Below are positions 1,176 through 62,459 of a stretch of 64,000 nt of DNA, piece by piece. A program made the position numbers and the translations under genes. Source of the DNA: a phage; assembly GCA_026066175.1 (NCBI GenBank), contig GCA_026066175.1_4721.1, one strand, 5' to 3'. Below the pieces are notes generated by a model, which did not search any database, was not told the origin of the DNA, and saw only the letters and a program-made list of their open reading frames with translations. Position 1 is the first letter of the stretch; every line of letters begins with the position of its first letter.

Positions 1176-1951
1176 TAGAATTCCTCTAAATCGTTGCTGC
1201 TGATCGTCCCGGTTGTCGACGGAATATTGCTACGACCTGCTGTTGTCGAAGCCGGTGCGGCCAGGTTCAGTCCGTTCAATAACCCACGCTCTTTTACCGT
1301 ACGACGTGAGCCGTCACGAACATCATAAAGAGGTACGTTATAATGGTCGAAAATCCGAAGCCATTGTACGTAATCCGCAACCACATGTTCTTTGCTCTCG
1401 TTCGGCGCAAAACGATCGAGTTGGTGGTCAACGTAAGCTTTTGCGCTTTCAGGATTGAAATTGTACTGTCGGCGGGCCTTGTCCACCATCGCAAGAAAAC
1501 AGGTGTTAGGGTCGCGGTTGATATACGAACGCGTTCTGATGAAAATCGCTGGGACCGTAAACAGAACCTTGTTGTTATTTCCATCAGCAACAATGTTAAC
1601 AGCACGGTGTGGCTGACCGGCGATTTTACACCAGTCGTGAACGATGGTACTATTACTCAACATCTCTGCGTATTCAGGGTCCTGCGAAAACATGCCTGCG
1701 AACGGATGCAGGAAATGTCTCACGAACAACGATTCAGGCAGGATGTTGGGACGCGTCATCTCCTGTAACCCTTTTCGTAGAAGCTCGCTGTTGTCGACTA
1801 ACTCCTGCCATATGTCCGGTCGTGTTTTCGGAATAGAAGGATCCTGAGCGCGGCGGATACGTTCTTCCTCGTTTACCACCACTACCCCAGCCGGATACCC
1901 TAGTAAATCCGTTCCTTCGTTAACGTTGCTGTTAGTTTGGCGCGCCTTCAT
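1175..1951 (-). CDS. hypothetical protein
   Basis: 258-aa ORF; AGGAGG Shine-Dalgarno just upstream of the ATG at 1951; stop overlaps the start of the downstream gene. Confidence 0.5.
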   Translation of the reverse strand: MKARQTNSNVNEGTDLLGYPAGVVVVNEEERIRRAQDPSIPKTRPDIWQELVDNSELLRKGLQEMTRPNILPESLFVRHFLHPFAGMFSQDPEYAEMLSNSTIVHDWCKIAGQPHRAVNIVADGNNNKVLFTVPAIFIRTRSYINRDPNTCFLAMVDKARRQYNFNPESAKAYVDHQLDRFAPNESKEHVVADYVQWLRIFDHYNVPLYDVRDGSRRTVKERGLLNGLNLAAPASTTAGRSNIPSTTGTISSNDLEEF

Positions 1952-2339
1952 TTACTTCCTCCTGCCATTTAACAAAGTTACCGCGTTCAGATCGCAAAAC
2001 ACCGCTTAAATCGTACGACATGCCTTTCTCTGTGACAATCCCTCCAATCTGGAGATCGACACGTTCCGTCGTTGAATCAATATACTTAACACGGACTTTT
2101 AGTTCCACGCGATCATAATACCGCATTAAATAGTCGTACAACATTCGATACGTCGCATCTTCTAATTTAGGTGCGCTGTATTGCGATGTTGCAATCAGGT
2201 ACGGTAATGAAACGATGGAACCTTGGTAACAATACGATTGGGAGTAGTTCGATATTGCAAAATTGGTCATGAGTCCATCTAGCTTCTTACCTGACGCTGT
2301 TAAAAAGCTTGATAGTCCTGGTAATGGATTCGACGCCAT
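1932..2339 (-). CDS. hypothetical protein (start trimmed from ORF 1932..2567)
   Basis: The first ~76 codons of the tracked ORF overlap gene 2353..2805 in another frame and look non-protein-like; internal ATG at 2339 is preceded by a GGAG SD. Confidence 0.4.
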   Translation of the reverse strand: MASNPLPGLSSFLTASGKKLDGLMTNFAISNYSQSYCYQGSIVSLPYLIATSQYSAPKLEDATYRMLYDYLMRYYDRVELKVRVKYIDSTTERVDLQIGGIVTEKGMSYDLSGVLRSERGNFVKWQEEVNEGAPN

Positions 2340-2352
2340 GAGGAACTCCTCG

Positions 2353-2805
2353 TTATTTTCGGTTGAGCGCTGCCAGCGTTTCGTAATCAGGCATGTGCCC
2401 CAATTGAAGATCAACAGGAACAGATGTTTGTGCCGCTGGTCCGTGGAATATTCGTTTATGCATATCGATATACCCGCATTCCAAACAAACAACATCAGCC
2501 AATTCCGACGGGTGATGTGGCGGGTCAATCCGTAAACGTTTATAATATTCCAACTGCCACCAGGCATGGAAATAGTTGTTGTATGCTGCTGACTTCTGGT
2601 TCGCGCATTTAAGTCCGTAAAGCACCCAAAGCTCAGCCATGAATTTCTTCATGTTTTCAATCGCGGGTACATCAGGTTTCATCACGGTAGAAATAAAAAG
2701 CAATGGTGAGTTATTATCACCAAAACAACCTTGTAGTGTATTACCAAAACGTTCAATATCCAGGCAAAGATACTCGCTTGATTTACCCTCAAAATGAACC
2801 GTCAT
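2353..2805 (-). CDS. hypothetical protein
   Basis: 150-aa ORF with ATG start and a weak GGAG-like SD. Confidence 0.45.
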   Translation of the reverse strand: MTVHFEGKSSEYLCLDIERFGNTLQGCFGDNNSPLLFISTVMKPDVPAIENMKKFMAELWVLYGLKCANQKSAAYNNYFHAWWQLEYYKRLRIDPPHHPSELADVVCLECGYIDMHKRIFHGPAAQTSVPVDLQLGHMPDYETLAALNRK

Positions 2806-3394: not shown

Positions 3395-3521
3395 TTTACT
3401 ATCCTCGGATTTATTAGGATTTGATTTCCAATATAAGGACAACGCCTTATACAGTCGATTGATGTTGTACATCGCATCTGTGATGTATCACAGAAGTAAT
3501 ATAGCCGTGAAAATTATTGTA

Positions 3522-5066: not shown

Positions 5067-5304
5067 TTAGCATTGGTTATTGATTGCTTCTATTTCATCG
5101 ATATACGGTTCTACGTCATCGCCCTCCACGAATTCGTTGAACCAACAGTCAATCGTTGAGATAACCGGTGACTGATGTTCACATTTCTTAGATACCTTAA
5201 ACGGAACGTTGTTATCCATCATACCGAGTTCGGGTCGGAATCGCCCGAAATGTTTCGCAGTCCAAATGTCTGGGACGATATGGTTGTTCATAGCGTCTCC
5301 GTCG
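5067..5304 (-). CDS. RNAP beta-prime N-terminal subunit, exon 3 (starts inside the catalytic DFDGD motif)
   Basis: In-frame codons just upstream of tracked ORF 5067..5291 read C-GAC-GGA-GAC-GCT-ATG = (F)DGDAM, followed by MNNHIVP, matching bacterial beta-prime NADFDGDQMAVHVP. Boundary set after the G that follows the intron S element. Confidence 0.55.
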
Positions 5305-5683
5305 CTGTTTGTCGACTATATCTTCATCTTCATTGCGAAGAGACTCTCGTTTGGGTTTGTGTTTAACAAAGCCTACTCTACTCAACATCGCGTCTTTCGA
5401 TAGTCTGTGAGCACACATCTTAACGAATATTCGTGGGTTCCTACAGACAGGTGAATATTCTTGTTGAGATGCTTCGCTGCGGATTATTCCCGTCCTACCT
5501 CTTTTACCATACCCAGTTCATTACGCTGGCCCTCATCGATGTCACCATGATGAGTTGGTGTGTAGTCCGATTACAGAAACTTCCCGTCAATTAGAGAGTT
5601 TTAACTATGCTCCTGTTACCAGGAACCAGATCCCGACGGCATCAATAAATCAACGTAAGTTATTGATTTAATTGAAAAAACTG
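5305..5683 (-). mobile_element. group I intron B (td-like, ORF-less)
   Basis: Minus strand carries group I core elements in order: Q AATCCGCAGC (5490-5476), R TCACAGACTA (5410-5401), S GATATAGTC (5322-5314), ending in G at 5305. P3-like AACTCTCTAATTGACGGGAAG near 5615. Only about 9 nt separate S from the 3' splice site (short P9). Confidence 0.55.
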
Positions 5684-5696
5684 AAATCTGCATTAT
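5684..5696 (-). CDS. 13-nt micro-exon (AT-AAT-GCA-GAT-TT) encoding the NADF part of YNADFDGD
   Basis: Lies between intron A (ends in G at 5697) and intron B. Splicing exon1-microexon-exon3 gives in-frame ...MILKGS-Y-NADF-DGDAMNNHIVP..., recreating the universal YNADFDGD motif. Both upstream exons end in U as group I 5' splice sites require. Confidence 0.5.
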
Positions 5697-6059
5697 CTAA
5701 ACCTTCGATATGGTTCGCTACGCCATACCCGCACATACGTGCAGCTTACGTCTTTCACGTAAGAAGAGACTATATCTTTCACCCTCAGCTTTACCTGTTA
5801 GGGGCTCCCATTTCGGCGGTCGTTTGACCGGTGGTTTCCCACGCCGCTTGGCCCTAACGCCCGTAAGCGATAGTCGTTGAGCACATCTCCGTTCTGGAGA
5901 CTTCGCTGCGGATTCCCCAATCCTTACTGCTTTTACCGTACCTGAATGATTAGTTCAGCCCCATGCTCTGTTCCCAGGCATGGTTGGTGAGCAAGGCTCT
6001 AAGTAGGTTCCCGCTATTAGAGAGTTCCTCGTGATAGCATTACTGTGTCACTGGGCCTA
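5697..6059 (-). mobile_element. group I intron A (td-like, ORF-less)
   Basis: Minus strand core elements: GGAACTCTCTAATAGCGGGAACC (P3 region), GGTAAAAGCAGTAAGGATTGGGGAATCCGCAGC (Q, 5914-5905), TCAACGACTA (R, 5880-5871), GATATAGTC (S, 5776-5768), then P9 hairpins CTTACGTGAAAGACGTAAG and GCACGTATGTGC. No ORF of 60 aa or more in this stretch. Confidence 0.65.
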
Positions 6060-7305
6060 ATGACCCTTTCAAGATCATCACGCTTAACCCGATGGTATTA
6101 TCCTGCGGGTCGCGTTTAACCTTGGTGATTTCAAGACATTGGTTACTGCTACGGTCAAGTGATGGATTTCGAACAAAGCCACACACAATCCCATCGAACG
6201 GTGTATCAGCAATAAGCTCGTCATGCAGCTCGCTCATCATCGGATGATAATTGCGGACATGCTCTGCAACGAACGCACGGGCTGCTCTTGGTGAATAACC
6301 ACGATGGAATAACTTGGATTGGATATGTTCTTTATTGGTTAGTGTAAATGGTGCGTACGGAAAATGCAGATGATAATAACGATGGTTTGCTGTTATCGAA
6401 CTGATGACCGTACGTGTGGTGAATGGATGTAATGTACCTAATATGTTCTTACGTGTGATCCCTTTCTTCTTACCAATGAACTCATCGAAAATCGCCGAGT
6501 GATACTGCAACAGCTTCAATTGCACTTTCGCCATCCAGTTTTCTTTCTTTCTGGCGCTTAGTGGCGTGGTTGGATGATAGATGCTATTCAATGTTCCGAT
6601 GGCGTCTATCGCACCTTCCATTTTGCTGTCAGCGTAACGTCCTGTTGGCGTGTTCTCGATCACGAACATCATGGCTGCAGGAAAGCTGATGTACTGACTG
6701 AAGAATTTATCCCGATGAATACGGATGAATTCGCGTAGCGTATCAACCTTCTCCATGTTCTTCGGTCCACGTAGTGTTGGGCCTTTATACAAGATCTCCA
6801 TGATACGATCGAAGTTCTGTATAAAGCTATTTATACCGCGTCGTATTCCGAATACATCGAATTGCTGTTCCAGATAGTTCTTAAGTTCGATCGGTCGTTT
6901 TACGTTCGGACGGTAACTGGCATCAATGAGCCACGTCATCGTTTCAAAGCTTTTGATATTCAACTCGCTTGCCAGCACGAGATGGACCAACGGGTTAATG
7001 AACGCATCGATACCTTCCGGTACGCGCGCCCAGACCGTTGAACGAATCTCTTGTTCTGCTGGATAAGTGACAACCGTTTTACAGTTCGGGCACACCGTCC
7101 CTAATAACTCACCGCGATTATAGAAACCACAACCGCATTGCGGGGTGATATCCAAGGTATCGCTAGAGTAAACACGGGTGATGAAACTGTTTAATTTCTT
7201 CTTCTCTTCCACGACCTTCGTATCATAATCGTTCAACAATATCGGCGTAAAAGGAAGTTCTGCGAGCTGTCTATCGAAACTGACGATATCGAGCATGATG
7301 GCCAT
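6060..7305 (-). CDS. RNAP beta-prime N-terminal subunit, exon 1 (non-virion-RNAP-like)
   Basis: Zinc ribbon CGCG..x12..CPNC near the N-terminus. GKKKGITRKNILGTLHPFTTRTVISSI matches beta-prime [25 protein letters not shown]. Tracked ORF runs to a stop at 6040, but homology ends exactly where NADFDGD is expected; predicted 5' splice site is after U at 6060. AGGAG SD upstream of ATG 7305. Confidence 0.7.
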
Positions 7306-7397: not shown

Positions 7398-9296
7398 TTA
7401 GAACAGGTTGAATGCCCCGCCCATGCCGTTACCGCCCACATTCGGACGATCGTTACGTGCGTAGATGTTACCGCTGATGGTACCCAGACCACGAGCACGT
7501 GCTGCCATGTTACCACGAACAGCGGTACCTGCCAGATGCTGGATGTTCTCAGGACGGATGGTGAAGCCTGCTTCAGCAGCCGCTTCAATCAGTGCCTGCA
7601 GCGCCAGCGGATCGAAATCATAACGCATCGCCCAGCCAGTTTGTTCCCAGCTACCAGACAGAACGCGGTCGATGATTTCGTGACGAGCAACCACACGCTG
7701 AGACATCGACATATCGGTACGGTCGAAGCTGTCTTCCCAAGCTTCTACGGTATCCGGGTTAGTGATGTTCATCATGTACAGATCGTCCATATCACGAATA
7801 TCGTGACGGTTACCGTCCTGGTGGTTGTAGTGACCCAGCGGGATACGGTTACCGGTCGCGTAGACCAGCGGTGAGCCGTACGGATATTTCTTGCTGAAGC
7901 AACCCAGGGTAACATCATCGAACGCACGGAAGAGGGCTTTGTAGCCTTCGGAGTATTCCTGTACGTCCCCTTCAACATTACCCGAGAAGATCTTCTCAGC
8001 CGCCGGGATCATACGCAGCAGCCAGCTGTACTCACCTTCTTCTGGTACGTCGATAGAGATCAGCAGAGACGGATACAGAACCTGTTGCAGGAACTTGTAA
8101 ATCTGCTCGTTGGTTTGCGTAGACAGATCCAGCGGTGCAGTCACTTCAGGATCCAGCACCATCGCCAGAGCACCTGGGTTATGCGGACCAATACCACGAG
8201 CTGCGTTGCTGATTAAAGACTGCGCCCACGCCATGCCGCTGTTCAGCGTAGCGATGGTACCAATCAGACCCAGCACGAAGCTGTTCGGCGTGAACGCATC
8301 CAGTTCCAGCGGATACATGCTGGTCATTACGTAGCGCGGTTGGTACTGTACAGTTGGCGGTACCGGATAACCGTTAACCAGAACAGGACCTTGCTGGAAG
8401 GTCGGGTTCTGCGGGCTGTAGGTCAGATCGATATAACCGGTGGATGCAACCAGACGCTGCTGGCTATCGTAATCGCCCATCGCTTGACGGATGCGGTTAG
8501 AGATAGTTACAGTAATGTCGGAGCGTACCGGGTTACCCGCGATATCGCTATCCTGCATGCCGCTGGTGTTATACTGAACGCTACTGATCGGCTGATCGCT
8601 TGCCATCATACCCAGGTTGAACTGAGGCAGGCCCAGTCTGTCAGCAAAACGCATTTCGGTTGCCGTCTGGATCGCGTTATCCGCTGCGGAAAGCAGGGTG
8701 GTTGCCAGATGCGCAGATTCAGCAGTGATTTCATTGGTCACAACAGCCAGACCAGCGATACGTACCGTACCGTTAGCTTTACCACCGATAGCCGCATACA
8801 TCGCTGCCATGACTTCGTTGATGAACGTGCCGTTCAGGTTATCCACCCAAGTACATGGTACCAGGATGTTACCGTGAGGACCACGTTCTTCACGACGTGG
8901 CAGCGGAGCCAGGCCAGCAACCAGCGGAAGGACGTAACCGAAGAAGTGGTTATGATCACCCACTTTTACACCGCTCATCACAACCAGAGTCGGATACGGT
9001 ACGCTGTACTGATTCGGGTCAACCGCAACAAAGATGAAGTCGTCTTTGAACTGGGTATCTTCCAGATATTTCTCCATCAGACGACGGAGATTCAGTACCT
9101 GCTCGGAGCCGGTATTACGGCTGATACGACGGCTCAGTGTACGGTTAATCGTACGCATCGTATGAGTTACTTTAGGACGGTCAGCAAAATCTGCAGCGGT
9201 TTCGACCGCCTCGTTAGCATGCTGCGCCGTGCGGGTTTCAGCCACGCGGATGTCTACGTTATCGTTACCGTTATTGTTACGTACGTCTAAGCCCAT
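7398..9296 (-). CDS. abundant 632-aa protein; candidate phage-nucleus shell protein (chimallin)
   Basis: Size matches characterised chimallins; codon usage looks high-expression (CGT/GGT/CTG-rich). Own upstream promoter-like element and strong downstream hairpin. Lies immediately upstream of a beta-prime N-terminal gene, the arrangement I recall for phiKZ. No sequence comparison was possible. Confidence 0.45.
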   Translation of the reverse strand: MGLDVRNNNGNDNVDIRVAETRTAQHANEAVETAADFADRPKVTHTMRTINRTLSRRISRNTGSEQVLNLRRLMEKYLEDTQFKDDFIFVAVDPNQYSVPYPTLVVMSGVKVGDHNHFFGYVLPLVAGLAPLPRREERGPHGNILVPCTWVDNLNGTFINEVMAAMYAAIGGKANGTVRIAGLAVVTNEITAESAHLATTLLSAADNAIQTATEMRFADRLGLPQFNLGMMASDQPISSVQYNTSGMQDSDIAGNPVRSDITVTISNRIRQAMGDYDSQQRLVASTGYIDLTYSPQNPTFQQGPVLVNGYPVPPTVQYQPRYVMTSMYPLELDAFTPNSFVLGLIGTIATLNSGMAWAQSLISNAARGIGPHNPGALAMVLDPEVTAPLDLSTQTNEQIYKFLQQVLYPSLLISIDVPEEGEYSWLLRMIPAAEKIFSGNVEGDVQEYSEGYKALFRAFDDVTLGCFSKKYPYGSPLVYATGNRIPLGHYNHQDGNRHDIRDMDDLYMMNITNPDTVEAWEDSFDRTDMSMSQRVVARHEIIDRVLSGSWEQTGWAMRYDFDPLALQALIEAAAEAGFTIRPENIQHLAGTAVRGNMAARARGLGTISGNIYARNDRPNVGGNGMGGAFNLF

Positions 9297-9355
9297 TTGG
9301 GAATCCTCTTTTTCTTAACTTTTAAATGACGTCATTGAATCAGCTTTTTCTCGCT

Positions 9356-9437
9356 CATTCACCTAGGTAATATAACCCTGAAATTTTTTTCAATATTGGT
9401 GCAACCTTATTGAACGATATAAACCCCCAGGTGAATG
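9356..9437 (-). promoter_or_regulatory. conserved AT-rich promoter-like element (TATTGAAAAAAAT..TATATTACCT) flanked by a 12-nt inverted repeat
   Basis: Plus 9365-9395 AGGTAATATAACCCTGAAATTTTTTTCAATA is near-identical to elements at 38275-38305 and 62429-62459. Inverted repeat arms CATTCACCTAGG (9356-9367) and CCAGGTGAATG (9427-9437). About 60-70 nt upstream of the ATG at 9296. Confidence 0.45.
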
Positions 9438-9534
9438 CTGCCGAGAAGCAACATTCTATCTACATATAATCAGGATATGTCTGTAAACTTTTACTTCTCG
9501 TCATATCCGTTTACTATCTTCTTACGGAGTTCGT

Positions 9535-10629
9535 ATGTTTCGTGTTTTAAATAACCTCCCGCGAACATCATCGGGTGTGCAACCCATCCCTCAGAAAGAC
9601 TACCTAATACGCGAAGTTCAAAGAAACCTACAGACAATCCAGAACCACTATCAAGGTTTTACCTTCGCGGTTCAGAGCGATCACATCCTTGCATTGCTGC
9701 TCGCACAGCTCCCTATGAGATACGACATCTCAGTACAAACTTACTACGACATGATCGCTGACCTTACACCAGAATTGGGGAATCGCGTTAAGCTAACAAC
9801 AGCGCGATACGCGGGTAAGTTATTTAACGGTGCGTTCTATCCAGGATTGCATGAAGCGATCATCGCAACCAGCGAAAGCCGTCTTATATCGCGTGACGTT
9901 CTCGATAACTGGCGTAACTGGTCTCCGGTCAGAATCGTGACACACCCCTACGCGAATCTTCGTTATATCCCTCTGCATCAAAAGCCGGTTGAAGAAGGAC
10001 GGGGTTTTGCAGTTATCATGATCGATGTTCCTTTATTAGCATTGCAGTATCGCATGTGGTCATTGGTCATGGGTCACAACGTCGATGGTAAATGGGTGGT
10101 TAAAGAACCCGTTACAAGTTTCATTGCCAGTTTTCCTTTGGTCAATGCGTTATATACACACAACGACGTGGCTATCCGCAATCGTTGCTTATGGGTACCT
10201 CCGGCTAAGAATCCGCTCAAGTCACCGATTTACGTCAACGATCTGGATAACGTTTTCAGTCAAGTGGTGCTGACCGTCCAACATCAGCTATTACGAAGAA
10301 AACGTAGTTACACCGACATGTTGAAACAGATACCGAGTTTATACGAGGATCAATTTCAAGCAACACGCATGGGTTACACGATCGATCTTCGACAAACACG
10401 GTGGGCAAGGGATCTCGGATGTTTGTCTTTATGGCAACAGCTTGTTACCTTGCAAAACGTTTCAGAAAGCGTCGGCTTCAGTAGTCAAACCGATAACGAC
10501 TTATATCGTGCAGCCGATCGAAGTCTAAAAGAAGGGAACTGGGAATCGTCTCCTTTACCCGGTGATCTACGACGTGAGGTTACCGCACAGGTTGCTGATC
10601 TTTTAAAAATTCTTCCCGCTGGTGTATAA
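9535..10629 (+). CDS. hypothetical protein
   Basis: 364-aa ORF with GGAG SD; diverges from the 632-aa gene across a 238-bp intergenic region. Confidence 0.55.
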   Translation: MFRVLNNLPRTSSGVQPIPQKDYLIREVQRNLQTIQNHYQGFTFAVQSDHILALLLAQLPMRYDISVQTYYDMIADLTPELGNRVKLTTARYAGKLFNGAFYPGLHEAIIATSESRLISRDVLDNWRNWSPVRIVTHPYANLRYIPLHQKPVEEGRGFAVIMIDVPLLALQYRMWSLVMGHNVDGKWVVKEPVTSFIASFPLVNALYTHNDVAIRNRCLWVPPAKNPLKSPIYVNDLDNVFSQVVLTVQHQLLRRKRSYTDMLKQIPSLYEDQFQATRMGYTIDLRQTRWARDLGCLSLWQQLVTLQNVSESVGFSSQTDNDLYRAADRSLKEGNWESSPLPGDLRREVTAQVADLLKILPAGV

Positions 10630-10631
10630 TC

Positions 10632-10663
10632 CCCTCCTCCTTCCCTGATGGGTTGGAGGAGGG
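10632..10663. terminator. bidirectional terminator hairpin between convergent genes
   Basis: 9-bp stem CCCTCCTCC / GGAGGAGGG with a 14-nt loop; near-identical to the hairpin at 60128-60160. Confidence 0.5.
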
Positions 10664-10668
10664 TTATG

Positions 10669-12822
10669 TTACTCTGCGGTTTCTTTTTTCGGTTGGTAGC
10701 TTGCAGCGATATCTTGGGCTAACAGTGTGTTGTTTTTATTCGAAATGAAAATACCGTAACTTTCCATTAATGCGTAATACGAGCGAACGAGTGTAGAAAT
10801 CAATCGACGAATATCCATACCTTGGATGAAAATATCGGGAAGCCCAGAGGCTTCGATCACCGGTAATGGTATCGTTAAATTGCTTATCGTTTTCTTATCG
10901 TTACGTACAATCCAATCACGGAAACGTTGTTGTAACCCTTTATCCTCCCAGGAATCAATCCAATCATTAAGAAGCGTTTTGTTCTTCGTTGCCAATGGTA
11001 CACGAACCCCAACATAAGGCGGTTCAGGGCAATGGCCGTACGATTGCGCAAACACCTCTTCCCACATGTCGTACGACTGCTTGGTAACCGCAACATGGGG
11101 TTTTACTTTAACGCGTGTTAAGAAATCAGGATCGCCGCGTTTCATCGATTCCACGATTTCGTTTTCTAACGCGATGATATCATCAAGTACCAATCTGATA
11201 CTGATCTTCTCGTTACGTAACAGTTTATCCATGATACCGCACATCATGCGCTCAACACGTTGTACGATCATTTTTGGTGCTGATGCGTCACGCATAACGG
11301 GACCTTTCAATTCCAGTTTCGGCGGATTGATTGGAACCCCTTCACGCATGGTCATGTAACCGTAATAGTTTTTACCCATTGAAGTCAACGACAGAATCAA
11401 GAACATATACTCGTTCTTCATTTCCATCACGTACATATGCTCTTTCGCGACGCCGATATTACCCGAACACATTGCCATCAGATGAACCGTAATCTGCGTA
11501 ACCAGGTAGATAAGCGTATTCGCTAAGCGCGTTGAAATCGGATTGATCTCCATGTTGCCAAACCGCCACTGAACCCACTCCTGACAGGTAAATACCGTTG
11601 AGTCGGTATCAGACAACACACCCACTTCACGGATGGCTGACGGAAACGCATAAACACCAGCGGGTTGGTTCTCGGTACGCCAGAACGCCATAATCAGGTC
11701 AGCGTAACTCTGGATACGCTGCAACATTAACTTTGTCGTGGCTGCGGTGAGACGATAACCCAGTTCGTTGCCTTTTTCTAACGCAACGTAAATCGCTTCA
11801 CCATTTAAGAACTCGGTACACTGTGCTGTAATCCAGGCAACCGTGTTATTATCCATGGATGCAATAATGGCTTTCGCCTCTTCCATCGTTTCAACAGGTT
11901 CGGTGGCCAATTCACATAACGAATCAAGGAACCCACGAACAAACTCAGGGTTCAGTTCGCGTAACGAATACAAGTTGTTGCTATACATGTAACAAGCACG
12001 TTCCAACGGCGTTAAGCCGTTAATCAACTCCTGAATGACCAGTTCTTTTTCCGGGTCGAAAATATAGCGATGCAGGCATTTTGATACATTAGCCCAAACC
12101 TCTTCCGGTGTCGGGTAATGTAGCTGGTATTTTACCATCACCTGCTCAATGGCTTTACGGTCGCTGTTACGGACAATGCTTACGATATTTTCAATCGCGA
12201 TATCACAATCGTAATAATGAAAATTACCTGCCAGGAACCGTTCGTTATTCGCATTCGCTGAACCGGAAGCGCATCGGCATGTCGTGGTTAAACTCGGGTG
12301 TGCGATCGGGTTATAAAAAGGATTGAATTTAGATGCCTGTGTTCCCGACAAACTGTTGTTGTCTAACTTGGTATTGGTCTGTCGTTTATCATGCAGTTCC
12401 GCTTCGTCTTTACGTCCATGCGCTTGTGCAATAGACATCTGTTTCTTTTGTTTCTTACGCAGCTTACCGTTTTCAACCGCAAAGTCGCTTAACACGCTGG
12501 AACGTGTTTCACGTGGATAACAGTTCGCCCATACCGGGGTAATGATTAAATTATTTTCTTTGATATCGTTGATATACTGACTGAACTTAATAAGTTCTTT
12601 TTCGCGGTTCCCTTCTGTACGTTGTGTTAAAACAAGACAGTCGGGATCGACCATCCCATGTGCACCACCTGGCTTGATGGTATCAAGTACGAACCGTAAT
12701 GCTTCTTGTTGAGAAATACCACGCATGCGCATTAAGAACAGGGTATAATCCTGCACCGCTTCTTTGGTCATATCCAACGTACGACCGTATCCGTTTTCGT
12801 CGTAAAAGAACGGATTTTCCAT
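10669..12822 (-). CDS. large hypothetical protein with polymerase-like motifs (possible divergent family-B-type DNA polymerase domain)
   Basis: 717-aa ORF, GGAGG SD. Motifs in family-B order: YSNNLYSL (motif A-like), KLMLQRIQSYA (motif B-like), VLSDTDSTVF (YGDTDS-like motif C), GKNYY (KxY-like). Weak; no Walker motif. Confidence 0.35.
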   Translation of the reverse strand: MENPFFYDENGYGRTLDMTKEAVQDYTLFLMRMRGISQQEALRFVLDTIKPGGAHGMVDPDCLVLTQRTEGNREKELIKFSQYINDIKENNLIITPVWANCYPRETRSSVLSDFAVENGKLRKKQKKQMSIAQAHGRKDEAELHDKRQTNTKLDNNSLSGTQASKFNPFYNPIAHPSLTTTCRCASGSANANNERFLAGNFHYYDCDIAIENIVSIVRNSDRKAIEQVMVKYQLHYPTPEEVWANVSKCLHRYIFDPEKELVIQELINGLTPLERACYMYSNNLYSLRELNPEFVRGFLDSLCELATEPVETMEEAKAIIASMDNNTVAWITAQCTEFLNGEAIYVALEKGNELGYRLTAATTKLMLQRIQSYADLIMAFWRTENQPAGVYAFPSAIREVGVLSDTDSTVFTCQEWVQWRFGNMEINPISTRLANTLIYLVTQITVHLMAMCSGNIGVAKEHMYVMEMKNEYMFLILSLTSMGKNYYGYMTMREGVPINPPKLELKGPVMRDASAPKMIVQRVERMMCGIMDKLLRNEKISIRLVLDDIIALENEIVESMKRGDPDFLTRVKVKPHVAVTKQSYDMWEEVFAQSYGHCPEPPYVGVRVPLATKNKTLLNDWIDSWEDKGLQQRFRDWIVRNDKKTISNLTIPLPVIEASGLPDIFIQGMDIRRLISTLVRSYYALMESYGIFISNKNNTLLAQDIAASYQPKKETAE

Positions 12823-12882
12823 AAACCCTCCAAAAGTCGTGTAGCCTATCTACATCATCTCGTATATCTGTTAAAAAAGAAA

Positions 12883-12925
12883 GACGGCATAAAAAAGAAC
12901 CGATCCAGCCGAAGCCAGATCGGTT
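12883..12925 (-). terminator. rho-independent terminator plus conserved TTTATGCCGTC motif
   Basis: Minus strand reads AACCGATCTGGCTTCGGCTGGATCGGTT hairpin (8-bp stem), then CTTTTTTATGCCGTCTTTCTTTTTT, about 65 nt upstream of ATG 12822. Confidence 0.55.
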
Positions 12926-13131
12926 GAAAGGATATTAATAACAGGGAAATGAAAGTGTGACTGAAAGATATCGATGATGTTCGTGAAATAAGATCTCTCG
13001 TATACAGTGATGCCAGATCAGAGGGAGGTTGTAAACGAGAGACGGTTCACTAAAGGAGTAACAAACGCGAACCTATCTTATTTCACCGATGGCGCTAACC
13101 ACTCAAAATATATAGTGCTGTATGTAAAAGT

Positions 13132-13545
13132 TTACTGATTAATCAAGTCGTTAGCAACGATCTTGGTGTAGCCTGCTTGATTAAGAATCTGATTAATTTT
13201 TGTTACATCTGTCGCATCATCAATAACGATGCTGGGTTTATAAATCAACGTCTTGGTAACAACGATCGTACTCTCCTTAATCCAGGGAATCCCTAGGATC
13301 ACATACTCGCCATCAGCGGTGATGACCTCAACGTAGTTATATTTCGTTGGATCATTCGGAACGCTAGACGGAAGCCGGGAATAGATCTGCTGATGGATAG
13401 CGTCAACATCACGGCCGTTACGTACAGCGGTACGGTAGTTGTATACCGCACTAATTTCCACTCCGTTGAAGTTAACCCCAAGTTCTGAGGCGTACACATC
13501 AAAACTCACAACAGAGCCAATCTTTTCTAAATCAGAAGCTGGCAT
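13132..13545 (-). CDS. hypothetical protein
   Basis: 137-aa ORF at the head of a run of small, tightly packed minus-strand genes. Confidence 0.45.
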   Translation of the reverse strand: MPASDLEKIGSVVSFDVYASELGVNFNGVEISAVYNYRTAVRNGRDVDAIHQQIYSRLPSSVPNDPTKYNYVEVITADGEYVILGIPWIKESTIVVTKTLIYKPSIVIDDATDVTKINQILNQAGYTKIVANDLINQ

Positions 13546-13556
13546 AATAGCATCCT

Positions 13557-13955
13557 TTATTCAAAAATGTATTCGTATCCGAACGTTGTCGCTGACCAAA
13601 CTCGGATAGATGATAATGTTCCGCCACGATAAAACGTTTTTGTAAATTCCATATCCTGGACAACACGATAATAAACACGTGCGATGATACGTACAACGAG
13701 ATTTCGTGATAACGATCTCTCTTCGCAGTATTCGTCGATAAAGTCATCGTCGATATCCGATAAGACAACATCTGCGATTTCTTGCAGGAGATTCCTCATC
13801 AGCATCTGCTTTCCTTCGATACCCCATCCCGACAAACAGTAATCGTCTTCTGCCTGACTGTAGATGTCATAGACCGCCTGTTCAAGCAGTTGCTCAAGAT
13901 AGTGATCATCGCGTTTTATAACATGGCGACGGCGCTCAGAGGCGTATTTTTCCAT
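13557..13955 (-). CDS. hypothetical protein
   Basis: 132-aa ORF; short overlap with the upstream gene. Confidence 0.45.
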   Translation of the reverse strand: MEKYASERRRHVIKRDDHYLEQLLEQAVYDIYSQAEDDYCLSGWGIEGKQMLMRNLLQEIADVVLSDIDDDFIDEYCEERSLSRNLVVRIIARVYYRVVQDMEFTKTFYRGGTLSSIRVWSATTFGYEYIFE

Positions 13956-14398
13956 CCTGTGTTTCTCTTGTTAGGCGTATGTATTAACGACGCCACCGTC
14001 TTTTCTGGATCATCCCATAATGCGCGACGAAAACTGGACACCACCATAACGGTAGGATAGATCTGTACAACCTCCCAACCGTAACGATGTGCATTCGTCG
14101 TGCGCCCAACATTGAACAAACACAATTGATTCAAGAAACAGAGCTGCATCTTCGTAAACAATAGCGTGTCTTCACGTTTCACGTAACCGAGGATATAGGC
14201 GTTCTCGAACGCTTCACGTGCTAAGACAGGACGGTTAAGATAACGTAGCGACAACACCAACAACGCGGTGATACGCAACGGATCTTCGGGTCCTTTTAAA
14301 TCATTCAGCTCATTCTGCAACCAATCCGGAATCGCCACCGTTAGGCGATAGGTGTCTGTTCCACGATCAACCACATTTAATGTTGAAAAAGGCAACAT
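13916..14398 (-). CDS. hypothetical protein
   Basis: 160-aa ORF; short overlap with neighbours. Confidence 0.45.
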   Translation of the reverse strand: MLPFSTLNVVDRGTDTYRLTVAIPDWLQNELNDLKGPEDPLRITALLVLSLRYLNRPVLAREAFENAYILGYVKREDTLLFTKMQLCFLNQLCLFNVGRTTNAHRYGWEVVQIYPTVMVVSSFRRALWDDPEKTVASLIHTPNKRNTGWKNTPLSAVAML

Positions 14399-14879
14399 AC
14401 CCGTGAATTCCTTCTAACTCGAGGTCGTTCTCGTCGGTTTTCGGTAAAAGTCCGTTAGCTGTCAGCATCCTTGTCATCGCGCCATCGAAGCACGGGAAGA
14501 TAAGGTTAATAGTTTCATTAATCGCATCAACGTAGCTATACACCGCTTCGAAGTAATCGCCGTCATGATCGATACTCACCAGATCCTGGCATAGGTCTTC
14601 AGCAATCGTTTCATATACCGGCGGATACCACGAATGAAACGGTCGCTGCATACGTAACGACCAATACTCATACGTCGTATACTGAAGCACGTCATAGGCT
14701 GATACGTTAATGCGGTCAAAGAAAGCATACGTGTCCATGTGTTGGTACAACATCGCCAACACGGTTTCCAAACACACAGCTATCCGCACGCCATCATCTT
14801 TCCCGTTAAGGAAATTCGGTTTCTGCCGGTAACGCACGAATGCCGATGGCCTTGATTGTACTATTCCACCACCAACCAT
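14367..14879 (-). CDS. hypothetical protein (start trimmed to internal ATG)
   Basis: N-terminal 37 codons of tracked ORF 14367..14990 overlap the upstream gene and look non-protein-like; start moved to M38. Confidence 0.4.
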   Translation of the reverse strand: MVGGGIVQSRPSAFVRYRQKPNFLNGKDDGVRIAVCLETVLAMLYQHMDTYAFFDRINVSAYDVLQYTTYEYWSLRMQRPFHSWYPPVYETIAEDLCQDLVSIDHDGDYFEAVYSYVDAINETINLIFPCFDGAMTRMLTANGLLPKTDENDLELEGIHGYVAFFNIKCG

Positions 14880-15346
14880 AATGTCATACTCGTATCTAAC
14901 GTGAAATTGAAATGCCACCAATCTTCCACGCGTGGAATCCAGGTGCGGAGGATCTGATGAACCTCGCTTCGCATCACGGACAACCGACAACGGAAATCAA
15001 ACTTCTCATCACGACCATAGTCTTCATGCAGGAAAACCTCATCCAAAACAAACTCAAGTTGTGTATCGACATCACGACCCGAGATATTTCGTTTGTACAG
15101 ATACAGTTCGATCGTGTCATAAAGCAACGTATGGATATCGTAATTGCCATTCGGTGAGAAATAAGGTAAGCGTTCATCGAACATCAAAAACAGATATTCA
15201 CTGTAGTTTAAGAACGGGATGATGTACCGACGTCCTGTCTGTGGTGCGCGAATATGTATCGAAACCTGACCTGGACGCGGAATCGCCGACGGTTTAGCAT
15301 CGTCTCTCTGAAATTGCTCTAAAGATCGCAACAAAGGTGGCCGCAT
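14861..15346 (-). CDS. hypothetical protein (start uncertain)
   Basis: Tracked ORF 14861..15418; start trimmed to M25 to limit overlap with the upstream ORF. Confidence 0.35.
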   Translation of the reverse strand: MRPPLLRSLEQFQRDDAKPSAIPRPGQVSIHIRAPQTGRRYIIPFLNYSEYLFLMFDERLPYFSPNGNYDIHTLLYDTIELYLYKRNISGRDVDTQLEFVLDEVFLHEDYGRDEKFDFRCRLSVMRSEVHQILRTWIPRVEDWWHFNFTLDTSMTLWLVVE

Positions 15347-15725
15347 TGTAACTCTCCAACGCCCAATTGTAAGGCCCTTCCAACATGTGTTCCCATACGT
15401 GAATAAACTCACTACCAAAAACCGGTTCTAACGTCATCGTAAGATGCGTAAGTTCAGAAGCTGCAGCGTGATACGCGTCCACGTGTCTTTCCATCGAAGG
15501 TTCGTCTTCGTTGAAAATACGCTCGGTATCACCAGCACGTTCAATAAGTTCGGTAATGAGATCGATCCAAGTTTCGTGGCATGTCAGTGTTTCCTGTTCT
15601 CGACTTTGTATGCCGATGTCTGCGTGTACGCTGGACTCGAACCGGTCGAAAAGGACCCGAAGAACGTGCACCTTGTCGATGTATTTCACCGTTATCCAGG
15701 AAAGCGGTTGCCATCGACTCAACAT
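15294..15725 (-). CDS. hypothetical protein (start uncertain; long overlap with 15541..16518)
   Basis: Tracked ORF 15294..15923; the first ~60 codons are N/P-rich and look like out-of-frame translation. No convincing SD for any candidate ATG. Confidence 0.3.
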   Translation of the reverse strand: MLSRWQPLSWITVKYIDKVHVLRVLFDRFESSVHADIGIQSREQETLTCHETWIDLITELIERAGDTERIFNEDEPSMERHVDAYHAAASELTHLTMTLEPVFGSEFIHVWEHMLEGPYNWALESYNAATFVAIFRAISERRC

Positions 15726-16518
15726 CCATCCGGTGCTCGGGAACCCCAAACTCATATAGTACGGGTTGCACGGGGCCAAGGACGGAACGGCGTTGTTTGT
15801 AGCGTTCCTTAACGGCGAGGCCTTGTTTGACATAAATGGGTTCATTGGCGAGTTCTGCGGCTTTTCGTTTTGCGTGGGCCAATCGAAGTTCTTCCAATTG
15901 TCCAAGCCATTCAAATTGTTCATCTGTTAGCTCCTGGGGACGTTCAACAACCACGCCCGATGGGCAGACATTGATCGTAATGTTAATTGATGGCATCGCC
16001 ATCACTCGAGGATTACTATTACGTACACGGATAACATGTTCGGTTGCTGATTTACGATCAACGCAATATTCTGTCTCCTGAAACTCAAATGCTTTTAACG
16101 GTGCTGGTTTTGTTTGACGTTTTGGAACACGGCCAAGATCAACAATATAGGCATAATCGCACACACGTTCTATTCCGTAAATACGGTTATCCGACCAATT
16201 CTTACCAAACAGCTTGTTGTGATGATAAGACAAATATTCGGTTACCATACCCTGGACAACATCGAAGTCTTCTCGAAATTCAGGTTGGTACCAAATCGGG
16301 CCGAGAATATCTGCGAACGATTCATGACGATAGCGGCAATCATGCCGTGTCCAGGTCATCCTCTGATTAAGATCGAAATCAACCAGCAACTCAGTTAATT
16401 GCAGTTTTGCCTTCGGAGAAAGCTGGCGTTGATGATGCAAACTCAGGCAATCGATAAGCGGTAACGAAACCCACGACGCTAACGTATACAAATCGATCCT
16501 GGCTAATCTCTTGGTCAT
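15541..16518 (-). CDS. hypothetical protein (C-terminal ~40 aa Arg-rich, possibly read-through or frameshift)
   Basis: 325-aa ORF; protein-like to about residue 285, then an Arg-rich tail that overlaps the next ORF in another frame. Confidence 0.4.
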   Translation of the reverse strand: MTKRLARIDLYTLASWVSLPLIDCLSLHHQRQLSPKAKLQLTELLVDFDLNQRMTWTRHDCRYRHESFADILGPIWYQPEFREDFDVVQGMVTEYLSYHHNKLFGKNWSDNRIYGIERVCDYAYIVDLGRVPKRQTKPAPLKAFEFQETEYCVDRKSATEHVIRVRNSNPRVMAMPSINITINVCPSGVVVERPQELTDEQFEWLGQLEELRLAHAKRKAAELANEPIYVKQGLAVKERYKQRRSVLGPVQPVLYEFGVPEHRMDVESMATAFLDNGEIHRQGARSSGPFRPVRVQRTRRHRHTKSRTGNTDMPRNLDRSHYRTY

Positions 16519-16609
16519 ACTCTTTTCCTAAGTCCCCATTGTTTATACACACGATATCTGGGAATAGTTAAAATATACGGCGTAAAACGAAACAGGAGAG
16601 TTTCTCGCG

Positions 16610-16930
16610 TTATTTTCTTCCTCTTTTGATACAACCGATACCCCTCTCATTTAAAGCCTCCCAGGCGCGGTTTATTTCATCTTCGGTTGCTCGCGTATCT
16701 CGCGGAACCACCATCACGCAGTCTTCTATCGGCCAATGCGTAGGACGAGGAGCAGCAAATAAATCGTCCCATTCAAACGTCCATTTCTTCTTCGAACGGT
16801 TATAGTAAAGTGTGAGGTACGTACGCGTATACGCTGGGTAGCCTTGTAACACGGCGAAGTCTTTTCGATCTTGATGTGCTTGATTCCATTCGTTAAAACG
16901 GTTTCTTATTCTTGTCCACCATTTTCCCAT
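16610..16930 (-). CDS. hypothetical protein
   Basis: 106-aa ORF. Confidence 0.45.
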   Translation of the reverse strand: MGKWWTRIRNRFNEWNQAHQDRKDFAVLQGYPAYTRTYLTLYYNRSKKKWTFEWDDLFAAPRPTHWPIEDCVMVVPRDTRATEDEINRAWEALNERGIGCIKRGRK

Positions 16931-16987
16931 AAACTCTCCTACACGGCATAAAAGCCTGCCCCGAAGGACAGGCTCATCATGATACTT

Positions 16988-17185
16988 TTAACCTTCCATC
17001 TTCAATGAGGGATGGTTGACGATATGTGCATGTTTGGTTGGGTCATACGACTGATAAGGGAAATAGCCATGCCATTGACGGCCTTGACATTTCGTACACA
17101 GGAACTGACCATCACGGCGTTGATGCTCGTATGCCAATTCAGTGCTATCAACGTGACCGCAACGTTCGCAGATAAACAGCGACAT
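16988..17185 (-). CDS. small zinc-ribbon protein
   Basis: 65 aa with CERCGH...CTKCQG (two CxxC pairs); sits immediately downstream of the tubulin-like gene. Confidence 0.45.
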   Translation of the reverse strand: MSLFICERCGHVDSTELAYEHQRRDGQFLCTKCQGRQWHGYFPYQSYDPTKHAHIVNHPSLKMEG

Positions 17186-17201
17186 AGCGCATCTCCATGA
17201 A

Positions 17202-18182
17202 TTAGAAAAGCAAGAAACCGCTGTTCTTCGCTTCCGCTACGGTTTCATCACCCACCTTCGGTGCTTGTTGACGTGCGTTACGATGTTCAACAAAACGTTT
17301 TGCTTCGTCCGCGATTTGTTTGATAATACCCCCTAAACGATCGGTGCTTAATACGAACGATGTCGCTTCACGAATCGGGCTGCTTTCCGGCACAAAACCA
17401 TCACAGCTATAAATAGCATTAACACCCATGACTTTTGTTGCATCTTTCGGATACAACGTACAGAAAGCAATCGGGCTATCATGCTCTTTGGTCCACTCGT
17501 ATCCCATGAACGTGTTCAATTCGGTGATGGTCGGTTCCAAACCGGTAACACGAGGATGGTTTAAGAAGTTCTCCAGATCAGCGCTATCCAAGCGACGGTT
17601 CTCACCAGAGAACAACACACAGAGTTGGCTGATAACGATCTGGACATCCAGGTTAACGTCTTGCTCCGATTTCCCGTTTTCGCCATTCATGTGGTAGCTG
17701 ACAATCACAGGACGTTTCAACCCTTCTGCGGCTGCCATCAGTCCTTTGAACGTACGGTCAGCATTGATGGTCTGACGTTCATCGTCGAAGGAGGCAACGA
17801 TACAACAGACGACACGCTCACCGCGTTCCAGCAGGTTAGCGACCAGCGCAGGGCCTGCAACGGAACCCGAACCACCGCTTAAGCTGAAGACGACGATGTT
17901 GAATTTACCTGGCGTATGCTTATTAAGAATACCTGGGATTTGTGAGCAGATCAGTTCAGCATTCTCATCGCGTTTCTTACCGGAACCATCAAGCTCGCGG
18001 CCTGCTGCATCTTTAAAGATGTAAATGTGATCATCGTCCAGTGCGCTATCACGTAGGTTAGCACGGCTGGTATCAACATACGTCATGCTGTGTAATCCTT
18101 TCGCGACTTCGCCTTCAAATGCTGAGCCGATTTCGCCGCCACAACCACCAACCGCCCAAATATGTACTTGGTTCTCTTGCAT
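17202..18182 (-). CDS. phuZ: phage tubulin/FtsZ-like GTPase (PhuZ-like)
   Basis: 326 aa. N-terminal IWAVGGCGGEIG (tubulin/FtsZ T1 loop, cf. GVGGGGGNA) and FSLSGGSGSVAGP (tubulin signature GGGTGSG equivalent). Size typical of jumbo-phage PhuZ. Confidence 0.75.
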   Translation of the reverse strand: MQENQVHIWAVGGCGGEIGSAFEGEVAKGLHSMTYVDTSRANLRDSALDDDHIYIFKDAAGRELDGSGKKRDENAELICSQIPGILNKHTPGKFNIVVFSLSGGSGSVAGPALVANLLERGERVVCCIVASFDDERQTINADRTFKGLMAAAEGLKRPVIVSYHMNGENGKSEQDVNLDVQIVISQLCVLFSGENRRLDSADLENFLNHPRVTGLEPTITELNTFMGYEWTKEHDSPIAFCTLYPKDATKVMGVNAIYSCDGFVPESSPIREATSFVLSTDRLGGIIKQIADEAKRFVEHRNARQQAPKVGDETVAEAKNSGFLLF

Positions 18183-38274: not shown

Positions 38275-38305
38275 AGGTAATATAGACCTCAACTTTTTTC
38301 CAATA
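38275..38305 (-). promoter_or_regulatory. conserved AT-rich promoter-like element
   Basis: Plus AGGTAATATAGACCTCAACTTTTTTCCAATA (minus TATTGGAAAAAAGTTGAGGTCTATATTACCT). Overlaps the last codons of gene 38289..39086 and lies about 120 nt upstream of gene 37674..38153. No plus-strand gene is downstream, which fixes its orientation as minus. Confidence 0.45.
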
Positions 38306-43471: not shown

Positions 43472-44602
43472 TTATTTGGCTTCATTAAAATAAATATCAA
43501 CGGCACGTTCCGTTGCGTAGAGAAGACCCAGATTCACGGTCCCTACCACTTCCGGTGAACCGATGATACGGTTAGCGATACTGGTGCCACTGAAGATAGC
43601 ATCAAGGGTGTGCCCGTCTTCGGTTTTGTTCACACCATGACCCACGGAAGAGACAACGGATTTCGCCTGTGCGGCGAAGGTACCTTTATCCCCCATTCCC
43701 GCACCAAGGTCGTAACGCATGAAAATACGGATCGCGATCTGGTTCTCACCTAACGGATTACCGTCTATTCTCACGTTACTGTTATTGATGCGTCCCGTTG
43801 TTGCTTCGTTGAGTTTCAGTTCCTTAACACGTTTAGCTCGCGCCTTATCAGCGTCACCCACAAGTGCTGCCATGGTTTCGCTCATGTCTTCAATCTGAGC
43901 GCGGTACAACACATCGATCTGTACGACTTCACCATGCACGTCAGCGCGTGGGTTATACTGACTCATACGGCGTAACGCTTCAACCGCTTCCTGACTTTCA
44001 TCGCTCAGATCGGTTGCAATAGGTTCTTCCAGTGTTGCCAGGATCGTCCGAGGTTCAACATGATCGCCGATTTTCACCAAACCACGAATGTTGAGATGAG
44101 CGTCAACAATGAGCGTACGGCTCTTAATCGATGGGGTTACGAGACGATCGGCAAGATTGTCGAAGATATACGAACTGTCCTCGTGCGTTTCTGGAATATC
44201 CAGAATACCAACCAGAGACAACACGCCTGCGCGCCAAACAACCTGACCTGGGTTCCACCAATCCCGTTTAAAATAAAGACGATGGAAAACCACTACATCC
44301 TGGTCCTTAACGCGATCCCCGACTTTATAATCGGTAATGAGATCGTGAGGATAATACTTACCTGGTCCTTTCCCGATTATCGTACCGAGTTGGAAAACCT
44401 CTTCCCCTAATTCTGGATCGTCGTATTGTATCGTAAGCGCTGTTTTGGTGACCTTCTTCACAACACCATCGCCTTGAGCAGCTGCTGCGAAGAGTTTACC
44501 AACACGATGCGCGATAACAGTCTCGCCACCAGTGCGCCATGGTTGTACGTCGTAACCTTCAGCGGCTATCATGCGGTTGTGTTGGATGCCTATAAACACC
44601 AA
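43472..44602 (-). CDS. RNAP beta subunit, middle segment (probable exon 2 of an intron-split beta gene)
   Basis: [28 protein letters not shown] matches beta [35 protein letters not shown]...[21 protein letters not shown] matches beta GRHGNKGVIS...[22 protein letters not shown]. The tracked ORF begins at a TTG, not ATG, consistent with an internal exon. Confidence 0.6.
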   Translation of the reverse strand: [376 protein letters not shown]

Positions 44603-51106: not shown

Positions 51107-51246
51107 CTGAACACATGAGAGACGTAATGGGTGAAGCCATCACCCATCGCTTCCCTGCTTGATGCGAGGAAGGTATTAAATTACGTACCTGTTCGACAGC
51201 ATCGAACAGGCGATGTATGAAGCTATGCTTCAATTTGGAGGTATAC

Positions 51247-62428: not shown

Positions 62429-62459
62429 AGGTAATATAGTCCTGATATTTTTTTCAATA
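62429..62459 (-). promoter_or_regulatory. conserved AT-rich promoter-like element
   Basis: Plus AGGTAATATAGTCCTGATATTTTTTTCAATA (minus TATTGAAAAAAATATCAGGACTATATTACCT), in the divergent intergenic region 62340-62473. Confidence 0.45.

Follow-up and report, generated by a model that had tools for sequence, protein, structure and literature searches.

The question raised by this locus is whether a 64,000-nt stretch of phage DNA (contig GCA_026066175.1_4721.1 of assembly GCA_026066175.1; hereafter the window) carries the genes of a phage nucleus, and from which phage they come. A first-pass annotation, made from the raw sequence, had proposed a 632-aa candidate chimallin (ChmA), a tubulin/FtsZ-like GTPase (PhuZ), and two paralogous sets of RNA polymerase (RNAP) genes. 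All open reading frames (ORFs) that it named exist at their assigned positions, on the minus strand except for the lysin-domain gene. The whole window is collinear with the region at approximately 162.6–228.3 kb of the E. coli jumbo phage vB_EcoM_Goslar (hereafter Goslar; NC_048170.1), with a nucleotide identity of 82–91%. Every ORF of the window has a Goslar orthologue except an HNH gene located in an intron, and the amino acid identities range from 53% to 99.6%. A nucleotide identity of ca. 82–91% to Goslar places the source phage in a different species of the same genus. The window is almost certainly part of the genome of a species-level Goslar relative, belonging to the genus Goslarvirus of the nucleus-forming ‘Chimalliviridae’, and encodes phage-nucleus genes. 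The features are collected in Table 1.

We used family profiles, solved structures, and the Goslar orthologue to assign the 632-aa protein. It matches the Pfam family PF25677 ‘Phikzvirus chimallin’ over residues 21–596 of 632 with 90.7 bits, above the membership cut-off of 27, and the PHROG family phrog_4795 ‘nuclear shell protein’ with an E-value of 1.6e-53. The cryo-electron microscopy structure of Goslar chimallin (PDB 7SQT) matches it end to end (residues 1–632, E=0), and further PDB matches are the PhiPA3 structure 8fne (1.6e-20) and the 201phi2-1 structure 7sqq (9e-11). The full-length amino acid identity to Goslar chimallin, gp189 (YP_009820873.1), is 93.5%, with 41 differences and one additional residue in 632. 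At the DNA level, chmA is 90.5% identical to its Goslar counterpart and has no other match in the phage collection. In Goslar, the shell consists principally of gp189, whose 11.5-nm square lattice has been solved both in situ and in vitro (structures 7SQT–7SQV; PMC9365700). Given its size and strong expression signals, the 632-aa protein of this jumbo phage might instead be a capsid or another virion structural protein rather than a nuclear shell, and the neighboring gene at 9535..10629 does weakly match a ‘virion structural protein’ PHROG. However, capsid and virion families were looked for among the matches of the 632-aa protein and none was found; its Pfam and PHROG matches are solely to chimallin and nuclear shell protein, and it is 93.5% identical to Goslar chimallin, for which the shell lattice is solved. 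The probability of a capsid identity is hence virtually negligible. By homology, the 632-aa protein is a chimallin. Size, expression signals, and synteny had been the only basis of the first-pass call; as this call turned out to be correct, chimallin calls of this kind can work from raw sequence.

We then inspected the segments on which lattice assembly depends in Goslar, where the tail segments NTS, CTS1, and CTS2 link chimallin protomers into the lattice (PMC9365700). No residue differs from Goslar in positions 41–81, which include the NTS-equivalent segment (this N-terminal tail locks tetramers to one another). The last 58 residues (575–632), which comprise the C-terminal tails, have five substitutions and neither insertion nor deletion. 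Judged by conservation alone, all three lattice-linking segments are kept. The substitutions relative to Goslar are clustered, with eight in the first 40 residues, five in residues 213–220, and six in residues 437–448. The codon differences from Goslar comprise 119 synonymous and 40 non-synonymous ones in chmA, and 88 synonymous and 7 non-synonymous ones in phuZ, a pattern that points to purifying selection on both genes. The 41 substitutions of ChmA and the seven of PhuZ supply natural variation compatible with function. In Goslar, the chimallin shell has been shown to enclose DNA (PMC9365700, PMC9891218, PMC10541120). When Goslar ChmA is knocked down, plaquing drops by a factor of at least 10^4 and infection does not proceed beyond the early vesicle, in which chmA mRNA is still produced by the injected virion polymerase (PMC10541120). 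With 93.5% identity to Goslar chimallin, ChmA of the window phage would be expected to form such a shell around DNA in infected cells.

The expression signals attributed to chmA are also present. An AAGAGGA ribosome-binding site precedes its ATG, and a phiKZ-type early-promoter-like motif lies upstream. The core of this motif, TATATTAC, is identical to the promoter core published for phiKZ, and in its longer form the motif is similar to the 201phi2-1 consensus (PMC7058600). The core occurs five times in the window (3496..3503, 9367..9374, 38277..38284, 46180..46187, and 62431..62438). All five copies are on the minus strand, intergenic, and located 24–92 nt upstream of a minus-strand ORF, and three of the five have the longer consensus TTG(A/G)AAAAAAnnTnAGGnnTATATTACCT. 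Their number is only mildly enriched (5 observed vs. 2.0 expected; 5 were reached in 4 of 100 shuffles), so the promoter argument rests on their placement. The 50 nt around the copy upstream of chmA are 100% identical in four genomes, namely the window, Goslar, and two relatives in IMG/VR (IMGVR_UViG_3300045988_173921 and IMGVR_UViG_3300011560_000001), with variable flanks. Its position and conservation suggest that this copy acts as an early promoter of chmA.

The second phage-nucleus gene is phuZ. Its 326-aa product matches phrog_4733 ‘tubulin PhuZ’ over residues 1–323 (2.1e-68). Among PDB entries, it matches 9PM9 (6.5e-217), phiKZ PhuZ 3ZBP (2.6e-29), and 201phi2-1 3r4v (6e-15). The identity to Goslar PhuZ (gp201) is 97.9%, with seven of the 326 residues differing and none of these in the last 28. 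The differences from 9PM9 are exactly the same seven, hence 9PM9 is Goslar PhuZ. Both the glycine box GGSGS (residues 102–106) and the catalytic Asp202 are kept. The product of 17202..18182 is accordingly assigned by homology as PhuZ, in agreement with the GTPase class proposed for it. Goslar PhuZ forms a vortex that rotates the phage nucleus, and the D202A mutant blocks rotation (PMC9891218). A bipolar spindle that centers the nucleus, as in phiKZ and 201phi2-1, is described for Pseudomonas chimalliviruses (PMC9891218), and what determines spindle or vortex is unknown (PMC12908238). The window PhuZ could in principle be of the spindle type, but with only seven residues differing from Goslar PhuZ, an alignment to phiKZ PhuZ that is merely distant, and a genus and host group shared with Goslar, a spindle is improbable. 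The Goslar-type vortex is the preferred reading, and at 97.9% identity the protein would be expected to form GTP-dependent filaments around the phage nucleus.

The first-pass proposal of two paralogous RNAP sets held in part. Genes from both polymerases are present, but there are only three of them in the window, one non-virion and two virion, which do not make up a complete subunit set; Goslar gp196, another annotated RNAP subunit, lies beyond the window end. The 421-aa ORF at 6040..7305 on the minus strand starts 93 nt downstream of chmA in the direction of transcription, in line with the reported adjacency of chmA and a β′ N-terminal (β′-N) gene. This ORF alone stops before any DFDGD and holds only exon 1 of the β′-N gene of the non-virion RNAP. 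Exon 1 has 99% amino acid identity to Goslar gp247 and ends in ...AAA GGG T, i.e., at U. Downstream of it are two group I introns, referred to as introns A and B, which are separated by a 13-nt micro-exon. Group I introns in the polymerase genes had been missed in the first-pass annotation. To set their ends, the sequence was compared with Goslar under the rule (hereafter the U/G rule) that U is the last letter of the 5′ exon and G that of the intron.

Intron A matches the Rfam family RF00028 at 5746..6083, and intron B matches it at 5305..5674 in a local search; both scores are below the gathering score of 50. Intron A is absent from Goslar, is a precise insertion relative to Goslar, and ends in G. 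It is also found in IMGVR_UViG_3300045988_173921, with 92% identity. Alternative junctions giving LKGLDNADF, IEGLDNADF, and ILDNADF were rejected, as each either gave a loop whose length departs from that in phiKZ and Goslar or broke the U/G rule. The junction GGGT|...TTTAG|AT complies with both rules, and the residues encoded across it are those of Goslar. Intron B is 91% identical to an intron annotated in Goslar, where it carries the HNH gene gp186. A possible 7-bp P1 helix, pairing CAGAUUU with GGAUCUG and having a U.G at the splice site, can be read from its sequence. In Goslar, intron B is followed by another 13-nt micro-exon, CGACGGTGACGCT, and then by a third intron, C, which is absent from the window.

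When exon 1, the micro-exon, and exon 3 are joined, they encode 497 aa (...SVMILKGYNADFDGDAMNNH), and the residues across the segment are the same as those of the Goslar exons. The spliced protein matches phiKZ gp55/56.1 in PDB 7OGP chain A with an E-value of 1.5e-73 and is aligned through the DFDGD motif; its match to AR9 β′ (7s01) has an E-value of 2e-13. The NADFDGD of the non-virion enzyme is present only once both introns are removed. The comparison also bears on the Goslar record. RefSeq gp247 ends inside the intron at ...NADFSFFN, followed by a stop, and the last exon is listed separately as the hypothetical protein gp185, while the 13-nt DGD micro-exon at ca. 168213 is unannotated. Goslar gp185 is the last exon of the non-virion β′ gene, and the annotated version of that gene stops short of the catalytic motif because no join across the introns was made.

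The other two RNAP genes of the window belong to the virion enzyme. The second β′-N gene, with a literal GADFDGD as previously reported, is uninterrupted in the window and gives weak matches to AR9 (9.5e-4) and bacterial β′ chains. In Goslar, an intron carrying gp206 interrupts the virion β′ gene at GAT|TTC within DFDGD. The β fragments noted near the 2233-aa lysin-domain protein both match one profile, phrog_3148: the ORF at 46214..49423 (1069 aa) covers its positions 2–1050 of 1424, and the ORF at 43472..44602 (376 aa) covers positions 1055–1422. Exon 1 has 95.7% amino acid identity to Goslar gp207. The joined exons encode 1448 aa without internal stop, equal in length to gp207, with the junction ...DRDDPKRLVF. 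The intron between them is absent from Goslar, and its RF00028 score is at or above the gathering score of 50. It is inserted directly after two conserved aspartates (DRDD|P), and the equivalent site of the intron-less Goslar gp207 is GACCGTGACGAT|GGAAAACGT. A guide-sequence search returned seven equally weak P1 candidates, and the first helices of the Rfam alignments are unlikely to be true P1 helices. As no unique P1 was obtained for the 1.6-kb intron, its ends rest on in-frame collinearity with Goslar and the U/G rule.

The HNH protein encoded in this intron has I-HmuI-like domains. It matches Pfam NUMOD1 with 34.4 bits (cut-off 22.8) and HNH_3 with 17.3 bits, which is under the cut-off of 24.8. 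By E-value, its best match in the phage collection is PhiPA3 gp210 (36% identity, 5e-46). PhiPA3 gp210 is an intron endonuclease that nicks the homologous phiKZ gene gp178 and gives PhiPA3 a competitive edge (PMC11620839; Birkholz et al., Science 2024), and its intron is described as being located directly after two conserved aspartates (PMC11620839). The window HNH protein is thus a putative gp210-like or I-HmuI-like homing endonuclease. The TATATTAC copy at 46180, inside the virion β intron and before the HNH ORF, suggests that the endonuclease is transcribed separately and early. Next to the virion RNAP genes lies the gene of the 2233-aa protein, which combines an N-terminal part of tail-fibre type with a C-terminal endolysin domain of lysozyme type (phrog_181, residues 1848–2056) and has 87.7% amino acid identity to Goslar gp204.

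All three window introns are preceded by U and end in G, and their removal restores the conserved frame (products ...KGYNADFDGDAMNNH and ...DRDDPKRLVF). We considered whether the interrupted RNAP genes might instead stay unspliced, i.e., be permanently split by insertion of homing endonucleases, with the pieces working as separate polypeptides. RNAPs of the phiKZ type are naturally composed of N- and C-terminal half subunits, a TTG three codons past the junction might serve as start of the ORF at 43472..44602, introns A and B do not reach the Rfam gathering threshold, and the 1.6-kb intron has no unique P1 guide. On the other hand, this insert has a group I core that reaches the threshold, and the restoration of frame is exact in all three cases. 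Unspliced, the non-virion β′ would have its catalytic NADFDGD destroyed, and the 13-nt micro-exon is not expressible alone. Relatives have ORF-less or empty versions with identical boundaries. In phiKZ, the solved gp55 chain is a fusion of gp55 and gp56.1, whose genes flank the HNH gene gp56. Permanently split genes are therefore very improbable, and the introns in the polymerase genes are predicted to be self-splicing and sited at codons of catalytic motifs.

The intron combination differs in each of the four Goslar-like genomes, over six sites in three RNAP genes. In the window, the non-virion β′ gene has A and B, both ORF-less, the virion β′ gene is empty, and the virion β gene has the intron with HNH. 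In Goslar, the non-virion β′ gene has B with HNH gp186 and C, the virion β′ gene has an intron with HNH gp206, and the virion β gene is empty. In IMGVR_UViG_3300045988_173921, the non-virion β′ gene has A, B, and C with two 13-nt micro-exons, and the virion β′ and virion β genes each have an ORF-less intron. In IMGVR_UViG_3300011560_000001, the non-virion β′ gene is interrupted at a fourth site (after GCT of N-A) and by C, the virion β′ gene is empty, and the virion β gene has an HNH intron that is 99% identical to that of the window. The non-virion β′ gene hence has four alternative sites within the 26 nt that encode Y-NADFDGD-A, and up to three of them are occupied in one genome. The virion β′ (D|FDGD) and virion β (DD|) sites have each been seen with an HNH gene, without one, and empty; these three states match the prediction of homing-endonuclease turnover. 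The mosaic fits the published idea that intron endonucleases serve as weapons between co-infecting chimalliviruses. We see an even chance that Goslar-like phages are still waging ‘intron warfare’ over the catalytic codons of their two RNAPs, in which the gp210-like endonuclease of the window would act against intron-less relatives such as Goslar in co-infection. The mosaic offers a ready-made E. coli system for studying homing-endonuclease competition between nucleus-forming phages. It is a modest side result outside the original finding, and the HNH intron itself is an ordinary selfish or competitive element known for the phage family.

Taken together with the Goslar experiments, the genes of the window suggest the following course of infection. 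The virion RNAP would be injected with the DNA and would transcribe early genes, including chmA, from TATATTAC-type promoters. Through the tail segments at its two termini, ChmA would then assemble itself into a square lattice, which would enclose the replicating phage DNA and keep host nucleases out. PhuZ would polymerize with GTP into filaments that wrap and rotate the nucleus compartment. Inside the compartment, the non-virion RNAP, whose β′-N subunit is encoded directly downstream of chmA, would transcribe middle and late genes.

Several points weigh against this interpretation. Experiments with the 94–98% identical Goslar proteins are the source for shell formation, for the PhuZ vortex, and for essentiality, and we likewise infer both promoter function and intron splicing. 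Homologues of ChmB, ChmC, and PhiPA3 gp63 and gp64 were sought in the window and are not there; in Goslar, the ChmC, gp63, and gp64 homologues are directly upstream of the position at which the window starts, and ChmB is reported to be absent from Goslar. The Pfam Tubulin match of PhuZ scores 30.2 bits, slightly under the cut-off of 33. A Pfam search of the RNAP subunits returned zero matches, which made PHROG and PDB sequence searches necessary; in PHROG, the 421-aa, 559-aa, and 1069-aa products fall into three separate families, each named ‘RNA polymerase beta subunit’. In pairwise BLASTP, the two β′-N proteins share only two collinear motif islands, so their paralogy rests on shared β′ homology.

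Table 1. Positions of the features discussed (window coordinates unless Goslar is named)
Feature	Coordinates	Strand	Match or remark
chmA, chimallin, major phage-nucleus shell protein, 632 aa	7398..9296	-	Pfam, PHROG, PDB 7SQT
phiKZ-type early-promoter-like motif TTGAAAAAAATTTCAGGGTTATATTACCT, then AAGAGGA ribosome-binding site	9360..9392	-	71 nt upstream of chmA ATG
phuZ, phage tubulin/FtsZ-like GTPase, 326 aa	17202..18182	-	phrog_4733, PDB 9PM9, 3ZBP
Non-virion RNAP β′-N (phiKZ gp55 homologue), exon 1	6063..7305	-	phrog_2987 9.7e-114
Group I intron A, 366 nt, no ORF	5697..6062	-	RF00028 27.9 bits, E 9.4e-5
13-nt micro-exon ATAATGCAGATTT, codons for Y-N-A-D-F	5684..5696	-	
Group I intron B, 379 nt, no ORF, splits F codon NADF|DGD	5305..5683	-	RF00028 49.1 bits, E 4e-11
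Non-virion RNAP β′-N, exon 3, begins C GAC GGA GAC = DGD	5067..5304	-	Goslar equivalent gp185, 79-aa hypothetical protein
Goslar gp185	5623..5862 in NC_048170.1 piece compared		
Goslar gp247	7640..8911 in NC_048170.1 piece compared		
Virion RNAP β′-N-like subunit, 559 aa, GADFDGD	49427..51106	-	phrog_2986 1e-179; phiKZ gp180 homologue by synteny
Virion RNAP β-like subunit (phiKZ gp178 homologue), exon 1, ends ...DRDD	46217..49423	-	phrog_3148 1.4e-289
Group I intron, 1605 nt, with HNH homing-endonuclease ORF	44612..46216	-	RF00028 51.4 bits
HNH ORF, 403 aa	44927..46138	-	phrog_59 2.6e-38; own TATATTAC motif at 46180, 42 nt upstream
Virion RNAP β-like subunit, exon 2, begins PKRLVF...	43472..44611	-	phrog_3148 1.4e-118
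Virion/tail protein, 2233 aa, phiKZ gp181-like	51217..57918	+	phrog_3201 2.3e-298
Divergent family B DNA polymerase	10669..12822	-	Pfam PF20286 675 bits; phrog_2927 1.7e-205

Aside from these genes, the interval between chmA and phuZ contains a divergent family B DNA polymerase gene, which the first-pass annotation of that interval did not mention. Two small, overlapping minus-strand ORFs without functional annotation, at 2353..2805 and 1932..2567, differ from Goslar more than the other ORFs of the window do, with 53% and 76% amino acid identity, respectively, compared with the typical 90–99%. A tRNA scan of the window found zero tRNA genes. An identical chimallin is present in a 31-kb Logan contig from run SRR22175737, the only such contig found, and the two IMG/VR genomes described above are two more relatives. 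The same phage was searched for among complete E. coli genomes, and a relative among GTDB representative genomes, and none was found in either set. According to a 2025 survey, Goslarvirus has grown from 1 to 237 genomes in 38 species through contigs hidden in bacterial assemblies (PMC12768965).

The phage-nucleus system found here is already known and well characterized in Goslar, whose proteins are 94–98% identical. As stated, the finding adds one more genome to a genus in which the shell protein, the tubulin, and the early infection steps have already been characterized structurally and genetically. Gene order and orientation are the same as in Goslar throughout the window, and orthology extends to the genes for DNA polymerase, terminase, sheath, and RNAP. 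The arrangement, which had been described as compressed within about 50 kb, is simply the normal Goslar layout. The proposed synteny with the gp54–gp55 and gp178–gp181 neighborhoods of phiKZ holds: in phiKZ, chimallin (gp54) adjoins the non-virion β′-N (gp55), PhuZ is gp39, and the virion RNAP genes (gp178/gp180) adjoin a large lysin-domain protein (gp181). The phiKZ non-virion β′ gene is also interrupted near DFDGD. TATATTAC-type promoters are common to the phiKZ group (phiKZ, 201phi2-1, and PhiPA3) as well. Different from that group, the group of the window phage has an enterobacterial host, its chimallin is only ca. 24% identical over the aligned part, and its PhuZ is only a distant match (E 2.6e-29 to phiKZ) and of the Goslar type, which forms a vortex instead of a spindle (PMC9891218). 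The HNH intron resembles that of PhiPA3 gp210 in having an HNH gene within a group I intron, in interrupting the homologous virion RNAP β gene, and in its insertion site after DD. It differs from gp210 in that the two endonucleases share only 36% identity and belong to phages of different genera and hosts, and in that the window HNH protein is known from its sequence whereas gp210 has been seen to nick its target.

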